A DNA stretch of 32,000 nucleotides from Candidatus Saccharimonadota bacterium (GTDB lineage Archaea > Nanohalarchaeota > Nanosalinia > Nanosalinales > Nanosalinaceae), in the NCBI GenBank assembly GCA_001761425.1, contig CP012986.1:990001-1022000 (forward strand), given 5' to 3'. The position numbers and the translations under genes are program-made. The notes under the pieces are model-generated. The model had not been told where the DNA came from. It did not search any database and saw nothing but the letters and a program-made list of their open reading frames with translations. Shown here piece by piece: positions 1 to 32,000 of the stretch. The number at the start of each line of letters is the position of its first letter. Positions within the stretch are counted from its first letter, which is position 1.

Positions 1-27
1 CCTGAAGGCCTGAAAAAATTTTTGACT

Positions 28-585
28 TTAGTTTTCAGTTTCCACAGCCAGTTCTATACCGTGACTACGGATTAATTCTGTCCCGTTCCGGTTTGTGTTG
101 AAGATCCTCTCGTACAGGTTGTCTTCTTCAATCAACTTGGTTAAATACTCCGTAGGCGAAAGCTTCACTGACCGACATCCAATATTTAGAGGTAGCGTAG
201 AATTCGAGATAGTTCCCTCGTAGATTCCACAGTGATGCTCGACATAAATCGGAGTAACACACCTTAATCCCGAAGTATTTACTCCAATACGTTCATCGTT
301 CAAACTTCCATAACATTTCAGTTTCCCAGGACATGAAGCATGATACTCTGCCTTACTGGAGACTCCAATCCCACAGGACTTATTTGAAACATGCTGAGAT
401 AAATCTGCTCGCGTAATACCATTCATTAAAGCAGTAAAAGGTTCACTAACCAACCACCCTGAAACTCCTAGAAATAATACCAGAGTGACCACTGTTACTT
501 TGCTTTTACCTAAGCTCCTGAACATAAAAGAAACATCTCCTTGGTTTCTGATAATTTTTAGAATTTTAATTATTGCGTCATCCAA
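28..585 (-). CDS. hypothetical membrane-anchored/secreted Cys-rich protein
   Basis: ORF track. A hydrophobic N-terminal anchor (VTVVTLVLFLGVSGWLV) is followed by about 140 aa containing 8 Cys. The protein is not acidic, unlike its neighbours. The start is uncertain (Met at 585 or at 525). No family recognised. Confidence 0.45.
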   Translation of the reverse strand: MDDAIIKILKIIRNQGDVSFMFRSLGKSKVTVVTLVLFLGVSGWLVSEPFTALMNGITRADLSQHVSNKSCGIGVSSKAEYHASCPGKLKCYGSLNDERIGVNTSGLRCVTPIYVEHHCGIYEGTISNSTLPLNIGCRSVKLSPTEYLTKLIEEDNLYERIFNTNRNGTELIRSHGIELAVETEN

Positions 586-902
586 TTGCCGTTAAGGATA
601 TTTTCCGTTGTCTCTGCTGTGGTTGCAACTGGTTCTCCAGAGGAAGTACTCGCGTGATGCACTCCTGCTACATAGGCGTCTCCGCTTCCTTTGAGATTAT
701 TACTCCAACCTGCTACATAAGCTACTTCTTCATTTGGATCAAAGGAGACATCACCTATTTGAACTGTGCCTCCATCCAGATTTAGAATATTTCCGGTTAT
801 ACCAACTGCACCAACGCCTTTGACGAATTCACGCCGATTTAAATTGTCCACGAAACTCTCACTAACAATCAACATATTTCTCTCGTTTAAGTATTTTTGC
901 AA
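570..902 (-). CDS. small secreted protein with a twin-arginine (Tat)-like signal
   Basis: ORF track. The motif NRREFVKGVGAVG fits the S/T-R-R-x-F-L-K Tat pattern. Position 902 is a TTG; the first in-frame ATG is at 875, which is the likelier start. Confidence 0.5.
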   Translation of the reverse strand: MQKYLNERNMLIVSESFVDNLNRREFVKGVGAVGITGNILNLDGGTVQIGDVSFDPNEEVAYVAGWSNNLKGSGDAYVAGVHHASTSSGEPVATTAETTENILNGNWMTQ

Positions 903-991
903 ACATATCTACAAAAAAGTTAACAGAAGGCCTGAACTCCAGAAAAACAGGCTTTCATCCACGAACTCGACAGTAAGATGTAAGGGATGGA

Positions 992-1744
992 TTAACCGTA
1001 AAGATGTTTGACCGCTTCATCAGCCAGTTCTCTGGTTTCCTCCTCTGAAAGCTCTGGAAGCTCCTCAACTTCAAGGCCTTTCTCCCTTATTATCCAGTGG
1101 AAGATTTCGAAAGATACGGGATAACCTTCTGCATTCTTCCAGTCATCGCCTCCATGGTCAAAGAAACTGCTTTCAGGCCTTTCCTTCTCCAGTTCGTCCA
1201 TAATCCTTTCGTGGTCGAAGTCATTTCCAAGAGTTCTGAAATTGGGCTTCCAGCCGTAGCCTTTCACCTCGTCAACTTTTCTGGCAGAGTTCGTGGAATG
1301 GCCCTCAAAAAGCACGCTGTTATAGTTAGAGCCATTCAATCTTTCTGAAAGCTCCTCGTCGCTGTAATGACTATAAAAATCGATGTGAGAGCCTTCATGG
1401 ACTGTCATGTTCTTCAGCGCAGGCCTCCAGTCATCTCTGGAATCGTTCGCATAGAGGAAGATAAAATTTCTTTCAAAACTGTCGAACCAGGAGCCGAAAG
1501 TGAAGCCGTAAACATGGAAATTTGTCCCTGCGTCCTCACCCCACTTTTCCCTGATCTTTTCAGGATCTGCAAGGCCGAAAACTACCTCTGCATCGCCTTC
1601 TCTGCCTAAGACTTCCTCCGCATCAGATAAGGCCTCTTCTATAACTTCCCTGTACTTCTCAACTCCTACAGGCTTTTCAAGCACTTCCTCGAAATCTTCC
1701 CAGAGGTAGTCATCCTCCTCCGGATCATAGGTTTGAAATTTCAC
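992..1744 (-). CDS. putative Zn-dependent metalloprotease-like protein (HExxH)
   Basis: ORF track. HEGSH motif in the context MTVHEGSHIDF. Acidic composition. The family assignment (DUF2268-like) is from memory only. Confidence 0.5.
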   Translation of the reverse strand: MKFQTYDPEEDDYLWEDFEEVLEKPVGVEKYREVIEEALSDAEEVLGREGDAEVVFGLADPEKIREKWGEDAGTNFHVYGFTFGSWFDSFERNFIFLYANDSRDDWRPALKNMTVHEGSHIDFYSHYSDEELSERLNGSNYNSVLFEGHSTNSARKVDEVKGYGWKPNFRTLGNDFDHERIMDELEKERPESSFFDHGGDDWKNAEGYPVSFEIFHWIIREKGLEVEELPELSEEETRELADEAVKHLYG

Positions 1745-1779
1745 TGGAGAAACTTGCGGAGATTAAACTTTAGTAATTA

Positions 1780-2475
1780 TCACCTGTACTCTTCCAGCGA
1801 GACAGCTCCATCCATATTCTGCTCAAAAACCGGATCCATCTCCGAGTGAGAATCCCTGATACTCTCTGAAAGGCCTTTACCCATGTAGAAGCTTCTCAAA
1901 GGCTGACCTTCGCTGAAAAGACTTACCTGGTAATCGATCTCAGGGAAAGGCATTACCTCCTCGAAGTACTGAGTGTCGTGAAGGCCTTCAGCCTCTTTAT
2001 AGAGTGCGGATGCTACTTCTCCCGTCCTCTCGATAGGTTCTCCATCGCCTGTAAGATAATCGCGAACGACCACGAAATCAAGATTTTCCAGATCTCTGGA
2101 AAAATCCTCTCTGCTTCTTTCCATGTCCCTGGCTCTTCTCCATCTACCTATGTCCTTGATATACTCCTGTCTCTCATCCTCATGCATCTTGATACTGGCA
2201 TAGGCCCCGGCAGTAGCACCGGCTAGCGGAGGCCCAAGCAGAAGAGCCATCTGATCGTTACTGCCCAGCATCTCGAGAAGGCCGAAATTTTCAAGGCCTT
2301 CAGTTGCTCCGAGGCCAGTAGCAAGGCCTCCGCCGACAAAGGTCAGGTACTTCCTCGCCAGGTCGCTGAAAGAACCTTCTCTGGAAGGTTTCTCACTCTC
2401 CAGGTAATCTGCGAGTTCGCTGTGAGGCCTCGGCAGCTCCCCGTCGTAAACTATGGATTTTCGGAAATCCTCCAT
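1780..2475 (-). CDS. hypothetical acidic protein with Gly/Ala-rich hydrophobic segments
   Basis: 231-aa ORF on the same strand as the next gene, 35 nt from it. No motif recognised. Confidence 0.45.
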   Translation of the reverse strand: MEDFRKSIVYDGELPRPHSELADYLESEKPSREGSFSDLARKYLTFVGGGLATGLGATEGLENFGLLEMLGSNDQMALLLGPPLAGATAGAYASIKMHEDERQEYIKDIGRWRRARDMERSREDFSRDLENLDFVVVRDYLTGDGEPIERTGEVASALYKEAEGLHDTQYFEEVMPFPEIDYQVSLFSEGQPLRSFYMGKGLSESIRDSHSEMDPVFEQNMDGAVSLEEYR

Positions 2476-3571: not shown

Positions 3572-3693
3572 TTTTCTACAACAAAATTAGGCCTCAAAAC
3601 TTAAGTCAAAACAAAAATCCCAAACGCAACCTCCTATAAAACTTAACACCACCAACAAAATCACCCAAACAGCAAAACCTTTTTTTTGCCATA

Positions 3694-3740
3694 GGCCGGT
3701 AGCTCAGTACGAAGCAAAAATGCTTCTCAACCCGGCCACC
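3694..3740 (+). pseudogene. collapsed tRNA-Lys-like mini-element (acceptor-like stem plus hairpin)
   Basis: Positions 3694-3708 (GGCCGGTAGCTCAGT) are identical to tRNA positions 3772-3786. The hairpin GAAGCA-AAAA-TGCTTC (3711-3726) matches the base of the intron hairpin (AAGCA...TGCTTC). CCGGCCA (3732-3738) pairs with GGCCGG and resembles the tRNA 3' end. Confidence 0.35.
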
Positions 3741-3770
3741 GACCAAACATATCACAGATCCCCAGAAATG

Positions 3771-3924
3771 GGGCCGGTAGCTCAGTCTGGCAGAGCACTC
3801 GGCTCTTAACTGGTTACGCTGAGGTTAACACACAAAAAAGCATTCGACCACACGAATGCTTCAGAAAAACCAAACGTCCAGCAGAGACACCGAGCGGTCG
3901 CGGGTTCAAATCCCGTCTGGCCCA
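3771..3924 (+). tRNA. tRNA-Lys(CUU) with an 80-nt intron at the canonical 37/38 position (intron 3809..3888)
   Basis: Manual fold:
- Acceptor stem GGGCCGG / CTGGCCC.
- D stem GCTC / GAGC.
- Anticodon stem CTCGG (3798-3802) / CCGAG (3890-3894), anticodon CTT at 3805-3807.
- T arm GCGGG-TTCAAAT-CCCGT, discriminator A at 3924.
- Bulge-helix-bulge: CTCT (3803-3806) pairs with AGAG (3883-3886), flanked by 3-nt bulges; outer helix CTGG (3810-3813) pairs with CCAG (3878-3881). Confidence 0.8.
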
Positions 3925-4068
3925 CTCCCAGTTATGTTGTAAGGTGTGGCAACGGACGGAAAAACAGCATTTCAAAACCTGGACTGATTTCATTCTATCA
4001 TATTCTTCTGGAAGTCACGGAACCTTCTCGCATACCTATTCAAGGATAGGCAAAGGAGGTGTAAAACC

Positions 4069-4356
4069 GTGAGCCTGGAAACAGAAGAGAAGAACAAGCT
4101 TCAGAACAAGAAGGAAGACATCCTAGATAACTGTAAGATCTTGCCGGAGGACGCTGAATGGGCAACCGAGGAATACGAATCCAAGATCGAAGACCAAGGT
4201 GCAGAAAAACCGGGAACCAAAGCACTCTACATGAGAGATATCGAACGTATCCTGGAAAAACTTCCATGTAGCATCCACGAACTACCAGACATGACTTACG
4301 GTGAGCTTCTGGAACTCAACGAGAAGATCTTGAATTCATCAACAGCTTCCCCATAA
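4069..4356 (+). CDS. hypothetical 95-aa protein, first gene of the island
   Basis: GTG start preceded by a perfect Shine-Dalgarno GGAGGTG (4055-4061) with 7-nt spacing. No family recognised. Confidence 0.45.
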   Translation: MSLETEEKNKLQNKKEDILDNCKILPEDAEWATEEYESKIEDQGAEKPGTKALYMRDIERILEKLPCSIHELPDMTYGELLELNEKILNSSTASP

Positions 4357-4425
4357 TCCATTGAAAGATCATGTGTTGTCAAATTATTTATTTTGTCTGA
4401 GTTTTTTGAACCAAGTTAAACAGGA

Positions 4426-5637
4426 TTGGGCCTAATTGTGTCGCAATTAAGTCCTTCTATGAGTTTAAAAGAAGATATAGGGGAATTAGTGGAAGCCATA
4501 CCAGTTTGTTTAAGTTTGGGTTTAACATTAAGAGAATGTATGGAAAAGGACTTCCTTGAAGTAGGTAGAAGAGATTATGAATGCTTGGATGGATTCAGTT
4601 CGTACATTCGAGATGAAGTACGGTTAGATGAACTCACAGGCAAACTCAATATCATTGGTGCTGTCAACGATTTTCACAGCAAACAGGCCTTGATTAACTC
4701 TCTGAGTAAATCTTTCAATATCATCAATGATAATGGTAATTTGTTCCTTTTAGAGGCTCATAAAGGAGAAGAGCCATATTACATGCTTTACGATAATGAC
4801 TTTCCTGTCTTCTTCACTACTGCTAGAAAAACTGAGGGTCCTCGGAGTAAAGGCAATATTAGCAATACATTATTCAGGCATATTGAATGGGAAGCTAATT
4901 TAGGCCGAATGTGGGTCAGTCAGGCTCACATGGAGGAGATTAGAATGGATATTGTTGAACAGTACCAAAATATTCTGATCCCACAATTCTCGGCTAAGAG
5001 AAACAAGAATGTGAATATAGAAGCTAAAAGGAGGCCAGATTATGACAGAACAATTCAGTATTCCGCAGATGATGGGCTTAAGACATATAAAGAGATGAAG
5101 AGGCAGTATGGCGTGCTGCCTACTACAATGAAGTTTGAAAAGCCAGGTAAATTCAAGTTCAAGGTCTCCACAGACGGAGTTTTTACCATAAATAGAGGAG
5201 GACTTGATGAATCGGTGCGCTTGATTAAAGAAACAATTGATCGTCTAAGACACATCAAAGGAGCAATTGACACTTCAGAATACCGGATGAAGAAAAACAA
5301 GTATTCTTCAGATTCCGCAATACCGAGAAGCAAGCCTTGGGCTATTAACCTAAAAAATGGCTTAGACGGGAGAGATGTTAGAAATTTTAAGAGAGCTATT
5401 GAAGATGAATATTGGGGATTCACTGTTTCTGAGTTTAACAGTAGCCTGAAGGGAAGGCCTCATATGTCTGCCACACTTGTTGATTCAAGCAGATTTGGCA
5501 GGATAGCTGTAAAATCCAAAGATGGTATCCTCAGAGTATATCCCAGAGAAGATACGGGCATAGATGAAGCACTGAGAGTTTACGAGTATGTTACAGATCA
5601 AATAGACAATACAGCTACAGCTACAGCAGTGAATTAA
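4426..5637 (+). CDS. hypothetical ~392-403 aa protein, roughly neutral/basic, unknown family
   Basis: Long ORF. Position 4426 is TTG; the first ATG is at 4459. It is rich in K/R/N/I, unlike the acidic host proteome. Its stop lies 3 nt before the next gene's ATG. Confidence 0.6.
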   Translation: MGLIVSQLSPSMSLKEDIGELVEAIPVCLSLGLTLRECMEKDFLEVGRRDYECLDGFSSYIRDEVRLDELTGKLNIIGAVNDFHSKQALINSLSKSFNIINDNGNLFLLEAHKGEEPYYMLYDNDFPVFFTTARKTEGPRSKGNISNTLFRHIEWEANLGRMWVSQAHMEEIRMDIVEQYQNILIPQFSAKRNKNVNIEAKRRPDYDRTIQYSADDGLKTYKEMKRQYGVLPTTMKFEKPGKFKFKVSTDGVFTINRGGLDESVRLIKETIDRLRHIKGAIDTSEYRMKKNKYSSDSAIPRSKPWAINLKNGLDGRDVRNFKRAIEDEYWGFTVSEFNSSLKGRPHMSATLVDSSRFGRIAVKSKDGILRVYPREDTGIDEALRVYEYVTDQIDNTATATAVN

Positions 5638-5640
5638 GGC

Positions 5641-6741
5641 ATGAAGATGGAAGAAGTTGACTACGAGGATGAACTCAAGGAAGTACCTAATCCAGATATC
5701 AGTAAGGTTAGAGAGTATTACAAAGACTTTAAGTCTGAGATAGATGAAGATCAGAAGAGAAAGGAACTTAGAGACTCATTAGATACGAGGAAAACGCATG
5801 ATAGTTTGGTTGGAAAAATAGCTTCTGCCTTTCATCAAGCTGAGGAGGCTGAAGGGAGTGATACAGGATATGAATTTGCTTTTACAGAACCTTTAGAGGA
5901 GAGAGGAATTCCCAATGGAGATATTCTACTTGTCAAGGAAGAAGAGGAAGGCATCAAGCTGTGTATAGTAGAGTGCAAATCTGGTTCAAAATATCCTAAA
6001 TGGTTCAATCAGATCTCAAAAATAAAGGAACAGCTTCAGGAAGAAGATAATCGGAGAGAGATTAAAGCTCAGATAGACTGTAGAGATAAGGAAATTAACT
6101 TCATACAGTATGTAATAGCCACCAGCGGCAGGAATCTAAGCGATGTAGATCCGAGCAGATATGAAGCTAATTATCCAGATAGTATTGCCATTTGGGGTGT
6201 TGATGAGATCCAACAATCTCTTTATGCTAAAAATGGTTACACTTGTAATGACAAAGATATAGCATCGAAAGTGGGGGAAGGTATTGATTATGGCAGGGTA
6301 GAGAATCCTATAAAGTACACGATTTCTAGTCATCCTGTAATAATATTACAGAGCGTGCTATTTGATATAATTAAATCCAATGCAGAAAATAGTCGATTTA
6401 AGGAATTTAATGAAGAAGAATTTTATGAGGAATTCGAAAAGAATCTTCAAATGGGTGTAGAAGGATCTAACAAAAATGATTTGGTTAATGGAGTCATTGA
6501 AAGCATTCTTAGTTTTGGAGAGGATATTAGAATAATTTCAAGCGATGAAGAGGATTTGAGAGGTACTAAGGATTACAGGATTATGTTCAGAGGTAAAAAA
6601 CCTCCTATGGCTCGCAAAGCAGTTAAAGAAAAGTTTTTGAGGAATAGGCCAGTCAGAAGAGTTGCAGAGGATGCCTTCCGACAAGCTCTGGAAAAATATA
6701 GAAACGAGGATAAACAGGGCGGCCTGGATGATTTTACGTGA
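5641..6741 (+). CDS. PD-(D/E)xK (NucS/Hjc-like) nuclease-fold protein with a C-terminal PIP-box-like peptide
   Basis: IPNGD94ILLV...KLCIVE111CK113SG matches the D...(D/E)xK core. It also parallels the NucS motif seen in this window (GFIDVFARDENENYVVIEVKR). The C-terminus reads QGGLDDFT. Confidence 0.6.
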   Translation: MKMEEVDYEDELKEVPNPDISKVREYYKDFKSEIDEDQKRKELRDSLDTRKTHDSLVGKIASAFHQAEEAEGSDTGYEFAFTEPLEERGIPNGDILLVKEEEEGIKLCIVECKSGSKYPKWFNQISKIKEQLQEEDNRREIKAQIDCRDKEINFIQYVIATSGRNLSDVDPSRYEANYPDSIAIWGVDEIQQSLYAKNGYTCNDKDIASKVGEGIDYGRVENPIKYTISSHPVIILQSVLFDIIKSNAENSRFKEFNEEEFYEEFEKNLQMGVEGSNKNDLVNGVIESILSFGEDIRIISSDEEDLRGTKDYRIMFRGKKPPMARKAVKEKFLRNRPVRRVAEDAFRQALEKYRNEDKQGGLDDFT

Positions 6742-6830
6742 ATTCTATTTTGCGTGAAAGTTTTCGCACAGGGCTTTGGTTTATAGGGTATTCGGGTACG
6801 CAGTTTTCCCCAGATCTATGAACATGGGTT

Positions 6831-7055
6831 ATGGTATGGGGTGATGATTGGGAAGCTATCAGCACGGCCCTCCTCGCAGTGATTTTTTCTGCAGGAGGTG
6901 CTACTCAGGCAGGGATCGCAACGATCTCCCTGGACGGTCTTTTCAGTCTGTCATCTACAATGACTACGTTTGCAACTATTCCAATCAGTTTCGGGTTTGT
7001 TGCTGCGATTATTTCTTTAGCAGCTATCTACATGATGAAAGGCCTGACACAGTAG
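6831..7055 (+). CDS. hypothetical small (74 aa) membrane protein
   Basis: ORF composed of two to three hydrophobic segments (ISTALLAVIFSAGGA, FATIPISFGFVAAIISLAAIYMM). It ends inside a hairpin. Confidence 0.35.
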   Translation: MVWGDDWEAISTALLAVIFSAGGATQAGIATISLDGLFSLSSTMTTFATIPISFGFVAAIISLAAIYMMKGLTQ

Positions 7056-7062
7056 GCCTTTT
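7038..7062. terminator. hairpin AAAGGCCT-N8-AGGCCTTT followed by a T-run, between convergent genes
   Basis: 8-bp perfect stem (7038-7045 / 7054-7061) with an 8-nt loop. A T-tract follows on the plus strand and an A-tract precedes it. It sits between the 74-aa ORF and the minus-strand gene that ends at 7071. Confidence 0.35.
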
Positions 7063-7070
7063 GAAGATTC

Positions 7071-7874
7071 CTATGGTTCAACAGGAAAGAACGTTTTTGG
7101 AAAATGTTCATTTCCCTTAGGCCAATGTTGATCAAGAAACTCTACTAACTCCTCTTTTGGCTTATTCTCATAGTTATCAAATCTGAGATACGAGTGATGT
7201 AGCCTCGAGTTTCCACTTGACGCATCCGCTACATATGTAAATAGCACTAAAGAACCTATCTTCCTGTCAAACACCTCAAAGTTTTCCCTCACCCACTTCT
7301 TTACCTTTTCTCTGGAGATATCCTCATCTCTATCGGCAGAACTAAAGTAAATATTAGTCATATCAACAAAAAGAGCATTACTCTGGTTATAGTAATCTTT
7401 GCCAGATTTGCTACCTATTGTTTGCTTTATCTTTTCTTCAATGGTTCTATCTCCTCCAGAAAAATGCGAACTCTGGCACTCAATATCTACATTTTTATCT
7501 TGAACATCAAAGTCAGGAGGATCTGGATGTTCAAAATCAATATCTTTTCTGATAAGTGACGCAGCAACATCTATCTCAAACCTTGTACCGAAATAATTAT
7601 CATAATCTTCCTTTTTTAATTCCTCTCTAAATTCATCAAAAAGTTCTTCTCTAGTACTTTTCACTTCAGAGAGATGTTTTGCGAACATCTTCAGTCTTAG
7701 AAGGTTGTAGTCTCTTCTTTCATACTCTCCGGCGTTATGAAGCCTTATCGTCTCCTCTGCCACATCCCGCATATAATCCGTAATCTGATCATTTTCACCA
7801 GGAAGAAACTCTGTATCCAATAATTCAGCCAGTTCCGACTGAACGCTTCCGAAACGCATCATAAAATCTAGCAT
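7071..7874 (-). CDS. hypothetical 267-aa protein, possible degenerate PD-(D/E)xK-like fold
   Basis: Long ORF. The pattern FE100IDVAASL...PDFD123V...VDIE132CQ134 resembles a nuclease core but has Q in place of K. The region is low GC and has no AGGCCT. Confidence 0.5.
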   Translation of the reverse strand: MLDFMMRFGSVQSELAELLDTEFLPGENDQITDYMRDVAEETIRLHNAGEYERRDYNLLRLKMFAKHLSEVKSTREELFDEFREELKKEDYDNYFGTRFEIDVAASLIRKDIDFEHPDPPDFDVQDKNVDIECQSSHFSGGDRTIEEKIKQTIGSKSGKDYYNQSNALFVDMTNIYFSSADRDEDISREKVKKWVRENFEVFDRKIGSLVLFTYVADASSGNSRLHHSYLRFDNYENKPKEELVEFLDQHWPKGNEHFPKTFFPVEP

Positions 7875-7983
7875 TATTATCTGCCTTAGAATGGACTACT
7901 TACTGCAATGATAGGTTTTTCTTTCACTTAAGTTTTCGGTAGGCCTTAAAAGTGGCTTTTTCCAAAAATGGTGGAGAGGGGTT

Positions 7984-8397
7984 ATGGCGAGTGCTGATGA
8001 GATTCTGGATGTTTCTGAAAGCGAGTTGAAATCTGAGGATCTTTCCGGTGAGGACTGGTCCAGGCTTGCTTCAAGGCCTTCCAGTGGTAGGGATTATCGG
8101 ACTTATGGGATCGGTGGTATCGATGGTTCCGGTACTCTGAGATTGGAGGAGGCGCCTGAAGGCCTTGTCTGGGATTTTATCGTGGTGTATGAGTTCGGTT
8201 TCGCAGGTGAGGAGGAGCCTGTTTCCAGTTTGCTGGATGAGGATCCTGATGTTCATACGATTGATCTGCCGTATAACGTGTTTGATGACGTGGAGGAAGC
8301 TGAGAGTTACATGGATTTCGTGGTGGATTACGGCGTGGAAAATGTTCTGGATGAGTACGGTGTGAGGTCTGCGAAGTCCCGTTCCTGTAATCTTTAG
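7984..8397 (+). CDS. hypothetical highly acidic protein
   Basis: 137-aa D/E-rich ORF. GGAG lies upstream of the ATG. Confidence 0.45.
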   Translation: MASADEILDVSESELKSEDLSGEDWSRLASRPSSGRDYRTYGIGGIDGSGTLRLEEAPEGLVWDFIVVYEFGFAGEEEPVSSLLDEDPDVHTIDLPYNVFDDVEEAESYMDFVVDYGVENVLDEYGVRSAKSRSCNL

Positions 8398-8443
8398 GTC
8401 CTGGACGTTAGAGTATTAACTTTCTTTCTGCATTTTTCTTTTC

Positions 8444-9190
8444 GTGGAACGGTACTGGGAGCTGGATTCTCTGAGAGGCCTTTCAGTCGTACTGATGATA
8501 CTGTTTAACTGGTCTTATGCCCTGAAATTCTTGAAAATCTATCATCTGTTCCCTGGAACCAGTTTCCTGTACTGGAACATTTTTCCACTGTTTGTAGCCG
8601 GTTCTTTCATGTTCATCGCCGGCATCTCGCTCTCCCTCAGCTGGAACAGGTTCAGGGACGAAGCTTCGAGAAAAGATAAATGGAGGAAGTACGGATTAAG
8701 AGGCCTGAAGATTTTCGGCCTGGGCCTTGGCATTACTGCGGTTACATGGCTAACTTTTCCAGACAGTTTCATATTCTTCGGCATACTGCATCTTTTAGGC
8801 CTTTCGATAGCGTTAAGTCCCCTGGTTATCGGAGATAGCAGGAAGACCTTTGCCTTATCAGTTTTCGTCGTCTTTCTATTTATTCTTCCTGAACTTGAAG
8901 CATCTTCTGTATTTCTTGCTTCTCTGGGTTTTTCCAGCTTGTCTTTCAGTACTTTTGATTACTTTCCTCTGGTTCCGTGGTCTGCTGTTGTCTTTACAGG
9001 TATCTCTCTGGGGCACTGGCTTTATCCGGACGGTAGGAGAAGGTTCGAGGTCGGAAGGCCTGACTTAGAGATTTCTGGTAGGCCTCTGGATTTGCTGGAG
9101 TTGCTGGGGAGGAATTCTCTTTTTATCTATCTTCTGCATCAGCCTGTGCTTGTCCTGTTCCTGGTTTTACTGGGTTATCCTGTCTTCTAG
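8444..9190 (+). CDS. multi-pass membrane protein, DUF1624/acyltransferase-like
   Basis: GTG start. The N-terminus WELDSLRGLSVVLMILFN resembles the R-x-x-x-D-x-x-RG motif of DUF1624/acyltransferase families. About 7 hydrophobic segments. Confidence 0.5.
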   Translation: MERYWELDSLRGLSVVLMILFNWSYALKFLKIYHLFPGTSFLYWNIFPLFVAGSFMFIAGISLSLSWNRFRDEASRKDKWRKYGLRGLKIFGLGLGITAVTWLTFPDSFIFFGILHLLGLSIALSPLVIGDSRKTFALSVFVVFLFILPELEASSVFLASLGFSSLSFSTFDYFPLVPWSAVVFTGISLGHWLYPDGRRRFEVGRPDLEISGRPLDLLELLGRNSLFIYLLHQPVLVLFLVLLGYPVF

Positions 9191-9214
9191 TTTTGGACAT
9201 GTGACCGGGTATGG

Positions 9215-9730
9215 ATGGAAGGTTTAATCTTTGAGCTGTCGTTTTTCTGTATGGAAGCTGTAACTGTTCTAGCTCTGGCATTTCTGGCGGTCGGTGTGAT
9301 AGGTTCTTTTCTGCCGATGATGCCTGGAGCACTGGTCTCGCTGATAGGCCTCAGTATTTACTGGTGGAGTACCGGTTTTACAAGACCTCACGTCTTTATC
9401 GTTGTTTTACTGTATCTGACTGGTTTCACAGCTTTAATGTTTGACTGGTTCGCAGGTGCTCTAGGTTCGAAGGCTGGAGGTGCTTCAAAAAGTACTGTTC
9501 ATGCTGCAGCGGTTGCTGGAATACTTTTTTTCTTCGTAGGAGGGCCTGTAGGTACGATCATCGGTATAGGCCTTGTTGTATACCTGCGGGAGTATCTTCT
9601 GACTGAGGACTCGGACAGGAGTTTGAAGGCTGCGGTCTATACCACCGCTTCGATGCTGGGATCTACGGTTGTCCAGGGAGCTTTGACAGGCCTTATGCTG
9701 GTGACTTTGCTTTTAACCATGCTGATCTAG
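9215..9730 (+). CDS. membrane protein, DUF456-like
   Basis: Four hydrophobic segments and LPMMPGALVSLIG. Family recalled from memory. The start could instead be the Met at 9251. Confidence 0.45.
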   Translation: MEGLIFELSFFCMEAVTVLALAFLAVGVIGSFLPMMPGALVSLIGLSIYWWSTGFTRPHVFIVVLLYLTGFTALMFDWFAGALGSKAGGASKSTVHAAAVAGILFFFVGGPVGTIIGIGLVVYLREYLLTEDSDRSLKAAVYTTASMLGSTVVQGALTGLMLVTLLLTMLI

Positions 9731-9765
9731 GAAAAAGTGAAAAGACCTGAGACAAGATTTTTCCT

Positions 9766-10233: not shown

Positions 10234-10281
10234 GCTGTAGGCCTCCAGTTTAAAATTCTTCGTGACGATTTTTCTACCTGT

Positions 10282-13142: not shown

Positions 13143-13169
13143 CGGGACTTCTGAAAGCTTTTCTGCTAG

Positions 13170-13177: not shown

Positions 13178-13199
13178 CTTTGAAGTGTAGGGTATCTGT

Positions 13200-21273: not shown

Positions 21274-21282
21274 GTGACCAAA

Positions 21283-21345
21283 ATGACGAAATTCGAAGAA
21301 GACAAATTTCTGGCATTCCAGAAAACACAGGGTGTTTCGGAATAA
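21283..21345 (+). CDS. candidate 20-codon micro-ORF bridging rpoA' and rpoA''
   Basis: AGGTGA (21272-21277) overlaps the rpoA' stop and lies 5 nt before ATG 21283. The product is [20 protein letters not shown]. Its stop TAA (21343-21345) overlaps the rpoA'' ATG (21345-21347) as TAATG. Confidence 0.25.
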
Positions 21346-23202: not shown

Positions 23203-24786
23203 ATGAGAAAAAACCCGGTGAAACAGGATATAGCGGACGTACAGAGACTTCAGGAGATAATTTCAATACTGGCGGAAAATGAGGCCTCACATCTGGTAAA
23301 GAAACTAGGCCTATCCTCCTACATGTCAGCCCGTCACAGGCATAAAAGCGAGAAACCTTCTCCAGAAAGACTTAGAGAAGTTCTTGAAGAACTGGGACCT
23401 ACATTCATCAAATTCGGACAGATAATGGCCCAGAGACCTGACCTCGTACCGGAGAAATATATAGAAGAACTGGAGAAACTTGAGGACAATGTAAAGGCCT
23501 TTCCAAGCGAAGAAGCCAAGGAGATAGTTGACAGAGAGATAGGCCTTGAAACTTTCGATGATTTCACTGAAGAGCCTGTCGCAGCTGCCTCTATCGCACA
23601 GGTTCATGAGGCCTGGCTCAACGGCGAAAAAGTAGCAGTCAAGGTCCGGAGACCTGGTATCAAGGACCAGATGACTACAGATCTTGATCTGATGAAATTC
23701 ATGGCTTCGAAAGGCGAACAGCATTCTGAGAAACTGAATAAGGTTAAGATAACCAAGATAGTCGATGAGTTCGCGGAATGGACCCTGGACGAGCTGGATC
23801 TGGAGAAAGAAGCAAGTAACGCGGAGACATTCCAGAGAAACCTTGAAGACGAGGAGAACGTAAAGGTACCAGATGTCTACCCGGAACATACTACACAGAA
23901 AGTTCTCGTGATGGAGTTCGTAGACGGTACTAAATGCACGAACGATGAGAGGATAGACGAGCTGGATCTTGATCGGAAGATGATTGCCGAAACAGGTATC
24001 AGAGCAGGCCTCAAACAGACAATAAGAGATGGTTTCTTCCACGCAGATCCTCATCCCTCCAACTTCCTGATACAGGAAGACAACACCTTTGTATACCTAG
24101 ATTTCGGTATGATGGGAACTATCTCGCCCAAGACCAAGGACCAAATGGGCCTCATCCTGATGCACACTCTGAACGAGGATATAGAAGGTGCGATGTCACT
24201 GATCCGGGACATGGCCTATGTGGAGGAAAATGCGGACTTCGAAGGCCTGAAACAGGATATCGAGCAGAAGATGCTGGAACTCAGAAACTCAAGTTTGAAA
24301 GATAACAGTATAACATCTTTAATGCTTGAGATAACAGTCAGTGCCTCACAGAAAGGAATTCACATGCCATCTTCATTTGTCCTGATGGGAAAGACCCTTC
24401 TAACTCTAGAGTCGGTAGGCCTGGCGATTTACCCACAGTTCAAGATGAGGGAAGAATATACTAAGATGGCGCAGAAGATGCTGTTGAAGAACAATCAGCC
24501 CAAAGATCTGATACAGTCACTAGCCATTGACCTAATCCAGAACAAAGAACTGATTTCCAAAGCACCCAGCAAAATCAGTCAAACGATAGACAGCATCAAC
24601 CAGAAACAGAGAAAAGAGATAATACATGAAAAGGCCTCGGACAACAAGAAAGCTGTCATCGTCGCAGGCCTTCTTATCTCCGCAGCAATATTCGCGGTAA
24701 ACTCTCCTATACCTTCTTCAATTATAACCCTTATCACGGTTACAGAGATCATACTAGCCTTTTTTCTGATGAATGAGGCCCTCTAA
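23203..24786 (+). CDS. ABC1/UbiB-family atypical protein kinase with a C-terminal membrane anchor
   Basis: LGPTFIKFGQIMAQRPDLVP, then AAASIAQVHEA, then VAVKVRRPG, then HADPHPSNF. Hydrophobic C-terminus. Confidence 0.8.
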   Translation: MRKNPVKQDIADVQRLQEIISILAENEASHLVKKLGLSSYMSARHRHKSEKPSPERLREVLEELGPTFIKFGQIMAQRPDLVPEKYIEELEKLEDNVKAFPSEEAKEIVDREIGLETFDDFTEEPVAAASIAQVHEAWLNGEKVAVKVRRPGIKDQMTTDLDLMKFMASKGEQHSEKLNKVKITKIVDEFAEWTLDELDLEKEASNAETFQRNLEDEENVKVPDVYPEHTTQKVLVMEFVDGTKCTNDERIDELDLDRKMIAETGIRAGLKQTIRDGFFHADPHPSNFLIQEDNTFVYLDFGMMGTISPKTKDQMGLILMHTLNEDIEGAMSLIRDMAYVEENADFEGLKQDIEQKMLELRNSSLKDNSITSLMLEITVSASQKGIHMPSSFVLMGKTLLTLESVGLAIYPQFKMREEYTKMAQKMLLKNNQPKDLIQSLAIDLIQNKELISKAPSKISQTIDSINQKQRKEIIHEKASDNKKAVIVAGLLISAAIFAVNSPIPSSIITLITVTEIILAFFLMNEAL

Positions 24787-24834
24787 CATCTACCCTGAAA
24801 TATGTATAAAGGCCTCTGCCTAGGGGGAAGTGGG

Positions 24835-24842
24835 TATAAAAA
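24835..24842 (+). promoter_or_regulatory. TATA box TATAAAAA for leaderless rps12
   Basis: Centred about 30 nt upstream of ATG 24869. A second TATAAA lies at 24805-24810. Confidence 0.4.
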
Positions 24843-24868
24843 GGTTAACTTCGATTTCTGTGTTACGT

Positions 24869-25291
24869 ATGGGACTGTACAACGCACGTAAAATGAGGAA
24901 GAAACGCCAGCAGTATCGCTGGAGTGACAAGGATTACAAGAGAAGAATGCTTAACTTGAAGGAGAAGGCAGACCCACTTGAAGGATCTCCACAGGGTCGT
25001 GGAATTGTACTGGAAAAACGTATTATCGAGGCCAAGCAGCCTAACTCTGCACTGAGAAAGTGTGTGCGTGTACAGCTTCTTAAAAACGGTAAACAGTTGA
25101 CTGCTTTCGTTCCAGGAGACGGAGCGATCGATCATATCGACGAGCACGACGAAGTACTGATTGAAGGTATCGGAGGAGCAGACTCCGGACCTAAGGGAGA
25201 TATCCCGACAGTACGTTACAAAGTCATCAAGGTGAATGGTGTTTCACTTGAACAGCTCGTCGCTGGAGAACAGCAGAAGCCAACGAGGTAA
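24869..25291 (+). CDS. rps12: 30S ribosomal protein S12 (uS12)
   Basis: [20 protein letters not shown], then [16 protein letters not shown] chose ATG 24869 over the GTG at 24830 in the ORF track because it matches the family N-terminus and the TATA spacing. Confidence 0.9.
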
Positions 25292-25297
25292 TCATTA

Positions 25298-25927
25298 ATG
25301 ACAGATTCAGCAGCAAAGCTCGACCTGGAAGACGAACTCCTTACAATGGGCAAATGGGATGCATCAGAAGCCACAGTATCCGATGACGGACTGGTAAGAT
25401 ACATCAGTCTTGAAAACATCCTTGCACCAAGATCAAAAGGAAGACACGTCGAGAAACAGTTCTACAAGGCAGACGTCCCGATCGTAGAAAGACTTCTCAA
25501 CAGGCTCTACGTCGCAGGACACAGAGGACAGAAACACTACATCACATCCGGAATCAACACCGGAGACAGCGAAAAACTCTGGAACGTAATCGAAGACGCC
25601 TTCGAAATGATAGAGGAAGAGACCGGCGAAAACCCAATCCAGGTACTCGTCGACGCAATCGAAAACTCCTCACCAACCGAAGAAGTAGTAACATACCAGA
25701 GAGGAGGAGCCAGAGCAAGAAAAGCAGTACTTGTAAGCCCACAGAGAAGAGTCGACCTCGCACTCCGCTTAATAGCACAGGGCGCATACGAAAAAAGACT
25801 CACAGACCCTGACTCAGCAGCAGAAACACTCGCCAACGAAATCTCACAGGCAGCCAACGGCAACAACGACATCAGAGCAGTCAGAGAAAAGGAAAGAAGA
25901 GAAAGAGAAGCAGAAGGCGCACGATAA
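25298..25927 (+). CDS. rps7: 30S ribosomal protein S7 (uS7)
   Basis: 209 aa with a C-terminal REKERREREAEGAR tail. Conserved position after rps12. Confidence 0.9.
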   Translation: MTDSAAKLDLEDELLTMGKWDASEATVSDDGLVRYISLENILAPRSKGRHVEKQFYKADVPIVERLLNRLYVAGHRGQKHYITSGINTGDSEKLWNVIEDAFEMIEEETGENPIQVLVDAIENSSPTEEVVTYQRGGARARKAVLVSPQRRVDLALRLIAQGAYEKRLTDPDSAAETLANEISQAANGNNDIRAVREKERREREAEGAR

Positions 25928-28982: not shown

Positions 28983-30269
28983 ATGGCTGATAAACCACAC
29001 ATTAATCTCGTATTTATTGGACACGTTGACCATGGTAAATCCACTTCAATTGGACGACTACTATGGGGAACGGAAAACCTTCCAGAAGAAGAAATGCGTA
29101 AGCTAGAAGAAGCTGCTGAGGAAGCAGGTAAGGAATCTTTCAACTTCGCCTTCGCGATGGACAATCTCGAAGAGGAAAGAGAAAGAGGAGTTACAATCGA
29201 TCTGGCCCACCAGGAGTTCGACTCTGACAATTACTATTTCACGATTATCGACGCTCCAGGGCACAGAGACTTCATTAAAAACATGATTACAGGAGCTTCT
29301 CAGGCTGACGCTGGAGTTCTAACAGTCGCAGCAGACGACGGAATCCAGCCTCAGACAAAGGAGCATGCTTACCTCTCCAAGACGCTGGGAATCGACCAGT
29401 TGATCGTCTCAGTTAACAAGATGGATCTTGAAGACTACAGCGAAGGAGCTTACGACGACATCAAGGACGAAGTTTCCGAGATGCTCCAGGGAGTCGGATA
29501 CGACCCAAGCGACATCCACTTCGTACCTATCTCCGCATTCGACGGAGAAAACGTTGTCGAAGACTCCACAGAGATGGACTGGTACGACGGTCCTTCACTC
29601 ATTGACGCACTGGACGACCTGGACGAACCTGAAAAGGCAATCGACCTACCGCTCAGAGCACCAATCCAGGATGTATACAACATCTCAGGAATTGGAGCAG
29701 TCACAGTCGGAAGAGTCGAGACAGGAGAGATCAACGCAGGAGACGACGTAGTCTTCGAACCAGCAAGTACAAGACTCAACAGGAACGTCGGTGGAGAAGC
29801 AAAGTCCATCGAAATGCACCACGAAGAAGTAGAAAGAGCAGAACCAGGAGACAACATCGGATGGAACACAAGAGGAGTCGGAGAAGACGATGTCAAGAAA
29901 GGAGACGTCGCAGGACCAGCAGACAATCCACCAACAGTTGTCGAAAAGTTCGAAGCACAGGTCATCGTCCTAAACCATCCAAACGTCATCTCCGAAGGAT
30001 ACACACCAGTATTCCACGTCAACACAGCACAGGTTTCATGCACATTTGAAGAAATCAAATCCACCATGAACCCAAAGACAGGAGAGACAATCGAAGAAGA
30101 CCCAGACTACATCAAACAGGGTCAGGCAGCAAAGGTCACAATCAGACCACAGCAGCCACTAGTCATCGAAGCAAACGGAGACATCCCACAGATGTCACGC
30201 TTCGCAATCAGAGACATGGGACAGACAGTCGGAGCCGGACAGGCCCTATCCGTCGAAGAAAAGGAATAG
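28983..30269 (+). CDS. tuf: translation elongation factor aEF-1alpha
   Basis: 428 aa. [21 protein letters not shown]. Shine-Dalgarno AGGTGA lies 7 nt upstream. Confidence 0.95.
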
Positions 30270-30397: not shown

Positions 30398-30405
30398 TTT
30401 TTTAA
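30398..30405 (+). promoter_or_regulatory. TATA-like TTTTTTAA for the acyltransferase gene
   Basis: Centred about 28 nt upstream of GTG 30430. Confidence 0.3.
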
Positions 30406-30429
30406 CAAACTGTAACAAAGAATTTTCCA

Positions 30430-31539
30430 GTGACTGAACGGATTGACAGCCTCGATACCCTGAAAGGCCTTGCGATCATCTCAGTGATCTACATTCACAG
30501 CAAGTTCTTCTTCAGCTCCCGGGAGATAGCTGAGGCCCTGAATTTTGTACTTGCAAACACTTCCCGGTTCGCCGTACCTGCCTTCTTCCTTACCTCAGGT
30601 TTCCTCCTAGGCAGAAAAATCAAAGAGAAAAACGATTTATCATTCATCCGAAGACAGCTTGAGAGCATAGGCCTGTACTATCTACTTGCCTCAGCGATCT
30701 ACATAATACCTACAGTAGCTATCCTCCATGCTAACCAGTACCTGAAGCTAGAGGTAGTATCTAACTGGTTGAAGCCTGTAAACATAGGAGTTCAAGGCCT
30801 TTTCAACTTCCTATACCTCGGAAAAGCAATAGCTCCTTTCCTGTGGTTTTTCACAGCACTTTTCTACTCCCTGATAGGAGTGTATGCATTCACAAGAAAA
30901 TACAGCGCTAAGTATCTAGTCCTGGGTTCCGCAGTTCTCCATGCATCACTGGTACTCTCGAACACGTACCTGTTCTGGGAAGGCCCTTTGCTTCCTGTAG
31001 AGGACGCTCTCTTCTTCGGCCTTCTTTTTACCTCAACCGGTTTCTGGATAGAGAAACAGGATTTTCAAAAGCTCTGGAGTGAAAAGACCCTGCTCGGACT
31101 GACAGGCCTTTTCTTTCTACTTAACCTTCTGGAAAGAGTGTTTATCTCCCTGAAAGTTCCTTCATGGGACATTTATTTCTGGGAGGGATTTTTCTGGGGT
31201 CCTTACTCGCTGTTCACAGCCCCGATGACAGTTTTTCTCTTTCTCTACCTACTGAAAAAACCAGATTTGGGAAACGACAGCAGGATCAACCTCTACGGAA
31301 AGTATACCCTGACAGGCTATATTCTACACCCTATAATTATCGGAGGACTTGTAGGCCTGAGCCTGGTACTTGAAGCTCTTCTACCCCTCCAGATTATGGG
31401 CACTCTGGCCTGGGACCTGGTTCTTTTCCCCTTTGCCTGTGTCCTGACTATGGAGACAGCAGTAAGAAACCAGGACAGGTTTAACTACGCGGTCAGAAAG
31501 ATGAAGGCCTTCGGAGAGAAAGCGAAGCGGTTCAGGTAA
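30430..31539 (+). CDS. acyltransferase family 3-like integral membrane protein
   Basis: N-terminus IDSLDTLKGLAIISVIYIHS (D-x-x-[KR]G...H motif) and about 10 hydrophobic segments. Confidence 0.65.
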   Translation: MTERIDSLDTLKGLAIISVIYIHSKFFFSSREIAEALNFVLANTSRFAVPAFFLTSGFLLGRKIKEKNDLSFIRRQLESIGLYYLLASAIYIIPTVAILHANQYLKLEVVSNWLKPVNIGVQGLFNFLYLGKAIAPFLWFFTALFYSLIGVYAFTRKYSAKYLVLGSAVLHASLVLSNTYLFWEGPLLPVEDALFFGLLFTSTGFWIEKQDFQKLWSEKTLLGLTGLFFLLNLLERVFISLKVPSWDIYFWEGFFWGPYSLFTAPMTVFLFLYLLKKPDLGNDSRINLYGKYTLTGYILHPIIIGGLVGLSLVLEALLPLQIMGTLAWDLVLFPFACVLTMETAVRNQDRFNYAVRKMKAFGEKAKRFR

Positions 31540-31584
31540 TAGGCCTTAATATCATTTATAAGATTTAACTCCGAACGGTTTTGT

Positions 31585-31893
31585 ATGCAGAGAGCAAGAG
31601 TAAAGCTGAGAAGTACCGACCAGGGAAAGGTTGACAGCCTGGCAGATGAAATCCTCGAGATCGGCGGCGAATATAACGCAAAGGTTTCAGGACCTGTACC
31701 GCTTCCAACACAGGAAATGGAAGTGACAACGAGAAAAGCTCCAGACGGAGAAGGAAGCTCTACAATCGAACACTACGAGATGCACGTACACAAAAGACTC
31801 ATCGATATCACAGAGTCCGAAAGAGCTTTGAGACAGGTCATGAGAGTCCACGTACCAGAAGGCGTAGACATCGAAATCGAACTACAGGAATAA
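31585..31893 (+). CDS. rps10: 30S ribosomal protein S10 (uS10)
   Basis: 102 aa. ARVKLRSTD, then SGPVPLPT, then HKRLIDI. Confidence 0.9.
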   Translation: MQRARVKLRSTDQGKVDSLADEILEIGGEYNAKVSGPVPLPTQEMEVTTRKAPDGEGSSTIEHYEMHVHKRLIDITESERALRQVMRVHVPEGVDIEIELQE

Positions 31894-32000
31894 ACACAAG
31901 GCCCTTCAAACAGGGAAAAACCTGTCCAAATTTAAAACTTCTAACAACTACTTTTTCTACACAGATTTGACGTACAGTTGACTAAGAGAAATGGGCCATT

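Follow-up and report, generated by a model that had tools for sequence, protein, structure and literature searches.

Why should the chromosome of a nanohaloarchaeon be strewn with copies of a single six-base palindrome? The question is raised by positions 990,001 to 1,022,000 of contig CP012986.1 (assembly GCA_001761425.1), a stretch of 32,000 bases at 45.8% GC that was analysed as a whole and is referred to here as the window. An exact scan found 111 copies of AGGCCT in it, at a mean spacing of ~285 bp and a frequency ~16 times that expected by chance. The analyses described below show that a lineage-specific, genome-wide and density-dependent process favours both the making and the keeping of AGGCCT in resident DNA. 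As to what this process is, we tentatively suggest, at a probability of about 45%, that AGGCCT is an archaeal counterpart, linked to a DNA methyltransferase, of the highly iterated palindromes (HIPs) of cyanobacteria, of which HIP1 (GCGATCGC) is one.

6–31546, no strand: the dispersed set of 111 AGGCCT copies, the first starting at 6 and the last at 31541

A first-pass annotation of the window had put the number of copies at about 110 and the enrichment at more than 15-fold, and exact counting bears this out, as 100 dinucleotide-preserving shuffles gave a mean of 6.87 copies (standard deviation 3.05, maximum 16). AGGCCT heads the ranking of hexamers in the window; GAAGAA, which comes next among unrelated hexamers, reaches 67 copies, and each of the remaining palindromic hexamers has at most 17. 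Since 50.8 kb of contiguous sequence (the window with its joined flanks) hold 192 sites, the enrichment goes on beyond the window at equal density. The same annotation had proposed a Markov correction as a check, but this check should not be carried to maximum order. The expectation is 6.4 copies at order 0 and 6.7 at order 1, far below the observed number, and then climbs through 19.7 (order 2) and 57.9 (order 3) to 104.5 (order 4), which is near it. This climb is circular, because the shorter words used to predict AGGCCT mostly sit inside it (111 of 149 AGGCC, 111 of 129 GGCCT and 111 of 184 GGCC copies), so that a ratio near 1 at maximum order is unfit as grounds for refuting the enrichment. 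The case is a caution for k-mer statistics in general, given that a maximum-order Markov correction would hide the AGGCCT signal.

The unit of the enrichment is the bare hexamer. GGCC outside AGGCCT occurs at expectation (73 copies observed vs 62.5 expected in the window), and octamers are as frequent as the heptamers within them predict (for AAGGCCTT, 25 vs 23.4). In the flanks, A at position -1 and T at position +6 are slightly preferred (51 of 111 copies each), and the bases from -8 to -2 and from +7 to +13 are near background frequency. Octamers explained by heptamers, together with background flanks, exclude a longer dispersed repeat, and the preference at -1 itself differs by lineage, being for A in the window's genome and for G in one related locus (L015). 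A dispersed repeat element, such as a repetitive extragenic palindrome (REP) or a miniature inverted-repeat transposable element (MITE), was rejected as a candidate, as there is no conserved unit beyond the core and the flanks are at background.

The AGGCCT signal sits in the DNA and not in the protein. Under a provisional gene list, 54 copies fall in frame xxA GGC CTx, 24 in frame xAG GCC Txx and 13 in frame AGG CCT, with 20 outside genes; the frames that the first-pass annotation assigned to the copies at 18942, 19318, 19369 and 20273 are correct. Under a refined gene list, intergenic DNA is in fact denser in the motif than coding DNA (16 copies in 2.86 kb, or 5.6 per kb, vs 3.3 per kb). These intergenic copies are single and have no common context or fixed position in the window, which speaks against a promoter or terminator role. 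Furthermore, when synonymous codons were shuffled within each gene of the window, 15.4 copies resulted, compared with the 91 observed.

The clearest measure is occupancy, which we define as the realised fraction of those peptide contexts that could encode AGGCCT synonymously; these permissive contexts are Arg-Pro, X-Gly-Leu, and Lys, Gln or Glu followed by Ala and then by a codon starting with T. In the window, occupancy is 71% in frame AGG CCT, 59% in frame xAG GCC Txx and 79% in frame xxA GGC CTx. The similarity of these values indicates that the excess of Gly-Leu in the raw counts reflects the commonness of that peptide and not a frame-specific process, and a comparison of motif density with codon frame, which the first-pass annotation had suggested, therefore finds enrichment across all frames. 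Its claim that neither codon nor dipeptide usage produces the motif is upheld by the presence of AGGCCT in all three frames and in intergenic DNA and by the synonymous shuffling, and its view that an active process is needed is supported at the level of DNA. The alternative, that base composition, the usage of codons or dipeptides, or some longer dispersed repeat yields AGGCCT as a by-product, can draw on the order-4 expectation, which comes near the observed count, and on the dominance of the Gly-Leu frame. Given the circularity of that expectation, the result of synonymous shuffling, the similar occupancy of the three frames, the higher intergenic density, the unconserved flanks, and relatives that have the same proteins and a similar GC content with no enrichment, we regard this explanation as refuted and give it practically no chance.

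Those relatives show that enrichment is a property of lineages. In a pooled comparison, made after the removal of near-duplicates, 15 rich loci (242 kb) hold 844 AGGCCT copies against 53.8 expected, a 15.7-fold excess, whereas poor loci (402 kb) hold 72 against 84.9 expected; the comparison with related genomes that the first-pass annotation had recommended thus divides them clearly. Among loci of the rpoB region, the window and L001, L002, L006, L008, L014 and L015 are rich (1.7–3.6 per kb), and L003, L004, L005, L007, L009–L013 and L016–L020 are at or below chance. Among loci of the region around the asparagine-synthase–Dph6 fusion gene (AsnS-Dph6), 11 more are rich (2.1–5.8 per kb) and 17 are poor, with L228, at 0.73 per kb, in between. 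No locus among the DPANN and euryarchaeal ones counted (L021–L045 and L238–L288) is rich. Occupancy separates the groups as well, at 64–76% in rich genomes for a conserved gene set and 0–15% in poor genomes, or 71% (708/993) and 6% (62/1014) when pooled. Leaving aside its own overlapping sub-words, AGGCCT is the sole outlier hexamer in rich genomes, and no replacement palindrome is enriched in poor ones. Another word, TACAGG/CCTGTA, is ~3-fold over-represented in rich and poor nanohaloarchaea alike, with 39 copies in the window. This bias is common to the whole group, has no connection with AGGCCT and serves as a useful negative control.

Neighbour-joining trees (RpoB+RpoA and AsnS+NucS) place most rich genomes in one clade, within which the poor L003, L004 and L213 are nested, while the rich L006/L008 and L015 lie outside it. 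L003 and L004 even bear the same genus label, Nanohalobium sp., as the rich L001 and L002. Such a scattered on/off distribution is what one would expect if the trait depended on a gene that lineages can acquire and lose. Poor genomes of the mixed clade match 4.1–4.6 of the six AGGCCT positions, compared with 3.9–4.6 in distant poor genomes, and synonymous sites are saturated, so that one gain with several losses is inseparable here from several gains. Three loci have intermediate densities: L014 (CP046106, the complete genome of strain M3_22) with 1.7 per kb, its sister L227, similarly intermediate, with 2.1, and L228 with 0.7. Occupancy in L014 is 49%, and this genome has 67 half-sites (AGGCCN/NGGCCT) to 37 full sites, compared with 82 half-sites to 192 full sites in the window's genome. 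In L014, L227 and L228 the motif thus seems to be in decay.

The process appears to reach beyond codon choice. Permissive contexts number 4.74 per kb in rich loci and 3.10 per kb in poor loci (pooled), and 7.9 per kb in the weakly constrained genes of the window compared with 2.6 per kb in its core genes. Because rich genomes hold more permissive peptide contexts, the process has probably altered amino acids too in weakly constrained proteins. Codon usage is biased by the motif and amino-acid usage probably as well, with permissive Gly-Leu, Arg-Pro and Lys/Glu/Gln-Ala-X contexts 50% commoner in rich genomes.

Two observations on other sequences stand beside these. Two poor loci, L009 (JALDAJ010000001, 21.8 kb) and L016 (JACOQA010000003, 21.8 kb), are nearly devoid of GGCC, with 7 and 12 copies at 46–49% GC. 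Such scarcity is a classic sign that restriction sites are avoided, in contrast to the window's genome, and because these loci are almost without GGCC it suggests that GGCC-targeting enzymes circulate among nanohaloarchaea. In addition, three viral or plasmid-like contigs from IMG/VR that are apparently unrelated to nanohaloarchaea carry dispersed AGGCCT at 1.7–3.6 per kb: L171 (10.8 kb, GC 52%), which encodes Rep3, ParA, an integrase and a DnaB-primase, L196 (13.9 kb, GC 65%) and L090 (3.6 kb, GC 36%). AGGCCT enrichment may therefore exist in other lineages too. A scan for dense AGGCCT triples gave at least 120 matches, and among the matches listed most were tandem repeats and unrelated bacterial elements.

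Individual sites are conserved between rich genomes. In ten rich-rich pairs, 43–86% of AGGCCT copies are conserved, compared with 15–34% for average hexamers (67% in the closest pair), which amounts to two to four times the conservation of an average hexamer. The relation is reversed against poor genomes of similar divergence: only 7% of the window's AGGCCT copies are conserved in L004 (22% for average hexamers) and 15% in L003 (23% for average hexamers). At codon-aligned orthologous positions, rich genomes have AGGCCT where poor ones have AGGACT, AGGTCT, AGGGCT, AGACCT or CGNCCN. A metagenome scan yielded no relative closer than 80% protein identity, and identical sequence was found in the Logan assemblies of SRR2630167. 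One 8.3-kb contig, 1.4% diverged, has 24 shared sites free of any substitution difference where ~2 would be expected to differ, too small a sample to use.

Sites also influence each other, and AGGCCT is spaced more evenly than at random. In 13 rich loci with 812 gaps (mean 284 bp), only 40 gaps are shorter than 40 bp where an exponential distribution predicts 106, and 238 are of 100–200 bp where 169 are expected. The coefficient of variation of the gaps is 0.55–0.93 in 10 of the 13 loci, despite a gene-to-gene heterogeneity that should inflate it. Pair correlation is 0.11 at 0–15 bp, 0.50 at 15–30 bp and 0.52 at 30–45 bp, and about 1 above 45 bp; bumps near 220 and 400 bp stand at ~3 standard deviations, uncorrected for multiple tests, and there is no clear periodicity. 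In line with this, adjacent permissive contexts less than 40 nt apart are both realised 30 times, compared with 52 expected under independence. Once trivially overlapping contexts are removed, occupancy rises with the distance to the nearest other realised site, from 33% at 6–20 nt through 67% at 20–45 nt, 69% at 45–100 nt and 79% at 100–200 nt to 83% beyond 200 nt (below 45 nt vs the rest, Fisher P=3e-7). Half-sites with the GGCC core are likewise scarce within 40 bp of a full site, whereas inner one-mismatch variants are not.

An abundant architectural protein that bound AGGCCT, whether for nucleoid structure, chromosome segregation or the phasing of chromatin, would give such a pattern if selection kept a site every 100–300 bp, and no methylation would be involved. 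It would account for the exclusion zone of ~45 bp, for the excess of gaps of 100–200 bp, for the rise of occupancy with isolation and for the conservation of sites between rich genomes; moreover, Xu et al. argue for a chromosome-structure role of HIP1 (PMC5861425). No candidate protein has emerged, however, and the spacing has no clear periodicity beyond the two uncorrected peaks. An essential system, in addition, should hardly disappear time and again from sister lineages with nothing in its place, and the poor genomes have no alternative palindrome. We therefore consider a purely architectural role unlikely.

One-mismatch variants of the motif bear on a second possibility. We divided the observed/expected ratio of each variant in rich loci by the same ratio in poor loci, both pooled. 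At the outer positions this gives 3.62 (95% confidence interval 2.77–4.72) for GGGCCT/AGGCCC, 1.36 for TGGCCT/AGGCCA and 1.20 for CGGCCT/AGGCCG. At the inner positions it gives 0.80 (0.68–0.95) for the transition AGACCT/AGGTCT, 0.63 for the transversion AGCCCT/AGGGCT and 0.85 for AGTCCT/AGGACT, and, one base further out, 0.94 (0.76–1.16) for the transition AAGCCT/AGGCTT, 0.97 for ACGCCT/AGGCGT and 0.73 for the transversion ATGCCT/AGGCAT. Outer variants are thus 1.2- to 3.6-fold up, and inner ones lie at 0.63–0.97.

Under a site-autonomous very-short-patch drive, AGGCCT would be methylated by a 5-methylcytosine (m5C) methyltransferase, and a Vsr-like endonuclease or Mig-like glycosylase specific for T:G would turn such mismatches in near-cognate sites into C:G, so that each near-site is ratcheted towards the motif on its own. 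There are precedents for such a coupling: the Dcm/Vsr pair of E. coli raises CCWGG and lowers CTWGG, and the archaeal plasmid pFV1 couples a GGCC methyltransferase (M.MthTI) to the T:G glycosylase Mig.MthI. In these systems, the context-specific correction of mismatches works in favour of a methylated palindrome, as it might do here, and the mild depletion of the central variants is in keeping with this, AGACCT/AGGTCT showing the largest absolute deficit among one-mismatch variants in a first pooled comparison. The drive predicts, as the first-pass annotation had pointed out, a loss of AGGTCT/AGACCT or of AGGCTT/AAGCCT. The outcome for that prediction is weak and unspecific: the transitions are only slightly depleted, and the two transversions at least as much. 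Compared with Dcm/Vsr, the effect at AGGCCT is an order of magnitude larger, the loss of deamination products is weak or absent, and the sites are interdependent; no very-short-patch footprint is known to come near a 16-fold enrichment with 71% occupancy. Independence of sites, in particular, does not hold here, as realisation depends on the distance to neighbours in a way that an autonomous drive does not predict. Neither a Vsr gene nor an m5C methyltransferase gene was seen in the loci searched (~650 kb, with M.HhaI, M.HaeIII and Dam as methyltransferase queries). Taken together, these points make the drive distinctly unlikely.

The closest match to what we observe is found in the HIPs. According to two papers, HIP1 is, like AGGCCT, a short GC-rich palindrome over-represented at least 15-fold (PMC4390886, PMC5861425), and it is scattered as single copies in all coding frames and in non-coding DNA, conserved between related genomes and present or absent by lineage, with one-mismatch variants concentrated at the outermost positions. 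The last feature is described by Elhai, who finds the HIP1 variants to be biased to outer positions (PMC4390886). AGGCCT thus shows the sequence-level properties of HIPs that were compared, namely their fold enrichment, dispersal, conservation and outer-position variant bias. A further trait of interest in HIPs is periodicity along the chromosome on a scale of 10–90 kb, for which the longest contiguous stretch here measures 50.8 kb. Furthermore, alternate HIPs replace HIP1 in other cyanobacteria, among them CAGGCCTG in Synechococcus PCC 6312, and GGCGCC, GCCGGC and GCsGC elsewhere (PMC5861425). In certain lineages another palindrome thus takes over, as AGGCCT does in one lineage of nanohaloarchaea, and CAGGCCTG, which is over-represented in Synechococcus PCC 6312 (PMC5861425), has an AGGCCT core.

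The likeness is not complete. HIP1 is an octamer of cyanobacteria, and AGGCCT is a hexamer of archaea, in this case DPANN symbionts. At ~3.5 per kb, AGGCCT is about three times denser than the ~1 per kb that Elhai cites for HIP1. Its interference below 45 bp has no described equivalent for HIP1 in the published passages compared. Unlike the alternate HIPs, AGGCCT has weak flanks that differ between lineages, and the poor nanohaloarchaea have no replacement palindrome. HIP1 has known cognate methyltransferases, and no counterpart for AGGCCT was found in the loci searched.

If AGGCCT is indeed such an element, a lineage-specific protein that binds to the palindrome in dimeric form would be behind it. 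The most plausible candidate is a DNA methyltransferase of the StuI type, specific for AGGCCT, that would serve to mark the DNA, whether as an orphan or in a fully protective role. Mutations that create a marked site far from others would gain a fixation advantage, and this could come about by two routes. There may be selection for one mark per few hundred base pairs, or there may be a methylation-directed repair ratchet, of the kind put forward by Elhai for HIP1, that misfires only where no correctly marked site is nearby. The diminishing returns near other sites fit both routes. Loss of the enzyme would then lead to decay of the sites. AGGCCT-specific methyltransferases do exist; in Alcanivorax, for example, nearly all of 1674 sites are methylated (PMC12128166). 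Elhai (PMC4390886) reports a methyltransferase of matching specificity wherever an alternate HIP is abundant.

Several points weigh against this proposal. No methyltransferase or restriction gene was found in ~650 kb of nanohaloarchaeal loci or in the 50.8 kb around the window, a negative of little weight, as ~51 kb of the 1.125-Mb contig were covered. Regular-expression scans of the archaeal loci for motif IV, motif I and m5C motifs were negative, the one NPPF match being a DUF11 surface protein; phmmer with the sequences of M.HhaI, M.HaeIII and Dam had no match in the ~650 kb of loci; and PADLOC, NCBIfam and Pfam identified no methyltransferase or restriction gene among the hypothetical proteins in and beside the window. 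In the sole published nanohaloarchaeal methylome, that of Ca. Nanohalococcus occultus, the reported motif is GDGCHC instead of AGGCCT (PMC10266531, PMC11001535). Even for HIP1, what connects it with methylation is a correlation and a hypothetical model. Strand-directed repair of the MutS/MutL type was not seen in the stretches read, in which NucS is present, so Elhai's ratchet cannot apply literally. Part of the interference at 6–20 nt could reflect selection against the small hairpins that two self-complementary copies would form, although its graded tail lies beyond such an explanation. Finally, true retention of sites between rich genomes and their convergent re-creation at the same permissive positions cannot be separated, with third-position identity at 0.46–0.61. 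We note that a methyltransferase is compatible with several of the alternatives, as the very-short-patch, uptake and architectural explanations are not mutually exclusive with methylation.

The genes of the window help to explain where the motif is dense and where it is missing. Their order is archaeal, with rpoH-rpoB''-rpoB'-rpoA'-rpoA''-nusA followed by rps12-rps7, then by the genes for elongation factors EF-2 and EF-1alpha, and then by rps10, and rpoB is split (Pfam). RpoB' is 89% identical to that of a metagenome-assembled genome labelled Candidatus Nanohalobium sp., and its 20 best hits are nanohaloarchaea or their close kin. By exact protein matches, the window also falls at about 996.5–1028.5 kb of a JGI contig of 1,125,078 bp (3300010222, Ga0136257_100001). 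The features that bear on the distribution of AGGCCT are the following.

1780–2475, minus strand: hypothetical gene of 231 aa, with 5 copies in 696 bp and 5 of 6 permissive contexts realised
8074–15064, no strand: the densest stretch, with 41 copies in 7.0 kb (5.9 per kb)
13571–14353, minus strand: gene for a NucS/EndoMS mismatch endonuclease (Pfam NucS_N and NucS_C), the sole DNA-repair gene in the window
15450–22460, plus strand: rpoB'', rpoB', rpoA' and rpoA'', with 16 copies, 1.4–3.6 per kb per gene and 16 of 22 contexts realised
23203–24786, plus strand: gene for an ABC1/UbiB-type kinase, with 10 copies and 10 of 14 permissive contexts realised
24830–25927, plus strand: rps12 and rps7, with no internal AGGCCT and 0 permissive contexts
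28983–30269, plus strand: EF-1alpha (tuf), with no AGGCCT and 0 of 2 permissive contexts realised

The densest stretch holds genes for an HGSNAT-like protein, DUF456, NUDIX and peptidase S51 proteins, the AsnS-Dph6 fusion, NucS and RadC, and permissive contexts are realised in 13 of 16 cases in AsnS-Dph6 and in 6 of 7 in RadC. The 231-aa gene, which has no Pfam match, had been singled out as dense in the first-pass annotation, and its five copies agree. In the ABC1/UbiB-type kinase, 9 of 12 motif columns are common to the window and L001 at 73% protein identity. AGGCCT is missing from tuf, rps12, rps7, rps10, nusA and rpoH, as the annotation had stated, with 0 copies in each. Its further claim, that constrained genes tolerate the motif least, is supported, with a refinement as to the cause. 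Permissive contexts number 0 in S12, S7 and S10, 1 in NusA and 2 in EF-1alpha, and in the window core informational genes fill 67% of their permissive contexts, the remaining genes 74%; conserved genes are thus empty mainly because they offer almost no permissive contexts, and not because the process spares them. The RNA polymerase genes show the same, with a lower AGGCCT density and yet a normal occupancy, and their motif columns hold AGGCCT in other rich genomes and AGGACT, AGGTCT, AGACCT or CGTCCN in poor ones. NucS homologues are found in rich and poor relatives both, so the presence of NucS does not separate the two groups.

Some neighbouring genes may be recorded beside these.

11010–13142, minus strand: open reading frame (ORF) of 710 aa, a glutamine-amidotransferase and asparagine-synthase module fused to a diphthamide-synthase (Dph6-like) domain; conservation of this fusion extends through nanohaloarchaea and to other DPANN loci
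13571–15074: the NucS/EndoMS gene head-to-head with a gene for a RadC-like JAB-domain protein, just upstream of rpoH; rich relatives and poor ones alike have kept the two genes
30430–31539, plus strand: gene for an acyltransferase-3 family membrane protein with 6 AGGCCT copies, which lies between EF-1alpha and rps10 and breaks the usual tuf-rps10 adjacency

Two sharp voids in the window have a different cause from those in conserved genes, as they lie in low-GC, lineage-specific DNA.

12–927, minus strand: void 1, two ORFan genes (185 and 110 aa) at 40–42% GC, with 0 AGGCCT
3771–3924, plus strand: intron-containing tRNA gene, probably tRNA-Lys (CUU) (Rfam RF00005, 51.8 bits), with an 82-nt insert
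3925–7940, no strand: void 2, pleolipovirus-like genes at 37–40% GC, with 4 AGGCCT and 2 of 11 permissive contexts realised

The near-absence of AGGCCT from 12–927 and 3595–7940 had been noticed in the first-pass annotation, and the counts, 0 and 4, agree with it. The single permissive context of void 1 is unrealised, and occupancy in the two voids together is 17% (2/12). Their GC content of 37–42% compares with 45–49% elsewhere in the window, and homologues of their genes are absent from all related loci compared. The 403-aa and 366-aa ORFs of void 2 match phrog_24372 (E=8e-82) and phrog_35712 (E=2.5e-26), respectively. At 34% identity (E=1e-64), the 403-aa protein also matches one from the pleolipovirus Haloarcula virus Harhisp1, in which two genes of similar size lie side by side, one of them being the match; a 74-aa gene of the island has a weak match to VP3, and a search of IMG/VR for relatives of the 403-aa protein returned none. 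Two independent assemblies break at or near the edges of the island. Its left edge is marked by the tRNA gene, which was found by Rfam and missed by ARAGORN, and of whose 5' end a 16-nt exact copy lies 78 nt upstream, at 3693–3708. This tRNA gene may be the integration site. In our reading, the larger void is viral DNA that integrated recently and has so far escaped conversion by the process. The motif flags foreign DNA, and the unmarked island and the density dependence together allow quantitative tests of models.

That foreign DNA lacks the motif is also what would be expected if AGGCCT were a signal for DNA uptake or recombination, spread by molecular drive. DNA bearing the (possibly methylated) motif would be preferentially imported or recombined among symbionts and the motif propagated by gene conversion, as for the uptake signal sequences (USS) of Pasteurellaceae and the DNA uptake sequences (DUS) of Neisseriaceae, and as has recently been proposed for HIP1. 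USS and DUS are non-palindromic, oriented sequences of 9–12 nt that number hundreds to thousands of copies, at a density of ~1 per kb; terminators often hold them in inverted pairs, and models of uptake drive predict even spacing and diminishing returns. AGGCCT resembles them in being a short motif in many copies, mostly in weakly constrained sequence, evenly spaced and missing from foreign DNA, and its even spacing and diminishing returns speak for this explanation. It differs from those oriented 9–12-mers in being a 6-nt palindrome present as single copies. The pairing up as terminators that the first-pass annotation mentioned for uptake sequences is not seen here: there is no orientation, there are no inverted terminator pairs, and close pairs (<45 bp) are depleted to 0.11–0.52 of expectation. 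A palindrome of 6 bp is also little specific, with ~0.3 copies per kb calculated by chance for a host genome of 65% GC, and the density of AGGCCT is roughly tenfold the densities of USS and DUS. The range of interference, 45–200 bp, is far shorter than any plausible uptake fragment, and DPANN archaea are not known to be naturally competent. Three published findings lean the other way: HIP1 raises transformation efficiency in a methylation-dependent manner (bioRxiv 10.1101/2024.09.10.611283), it correlates with type IV secretion genes (bioRxiv 10.64898/2026.06.24.733823), and giant surface proteins of nanohaloarchaea carry a VirB4/TraG-like ATPase domain (PMC10266531). On balance, an uptake signal seems improbable to us.

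Whichever agent is at work, the finding widens the setting in which these elements can be studied. Hyper-abundant palindromes have been studied almost only in cyanobacteria, where the origin of HIPs has been argued over for three decades, between biased repair, a role in chromosome structure and a role in DNA uptake; AGGCCT is an independent case in another domain of life, and a full-text literature search found no report of its enrichment in archaea or nanohaloarchaea. Sister genomes that are rich, intermediate and poor make the long-standing question of HIPs directly testable, since a comparison of gene content with motif density could name the responsible enzyme, and the intermediates would show the decay that follows its loss. 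In practical terms, AGGCCT density is a strong marker for the binning of metagenomic contigs.

For the organisms themselves, one speculation goes further, and we would put it at long odds: DPANN ectosymbionts of one lineage may mark their own chromosome, at intervals of a few hundred base pairs, with a dense and probably methylated AGGCCT "barcode" that tells self from host or viral DNA. Conceivable uses of such a barcode would be to guard the cell's own DNA while host DNA is scavenged for nucleotides, or to steer exchange and repair among symbiont cells. If true, no sequence of the self-recognition or uptake type would have been found in Archaea before it, and the sister lineages in which it is on or off would provide a natural experiment for the 30-year-old problem of HIP1.

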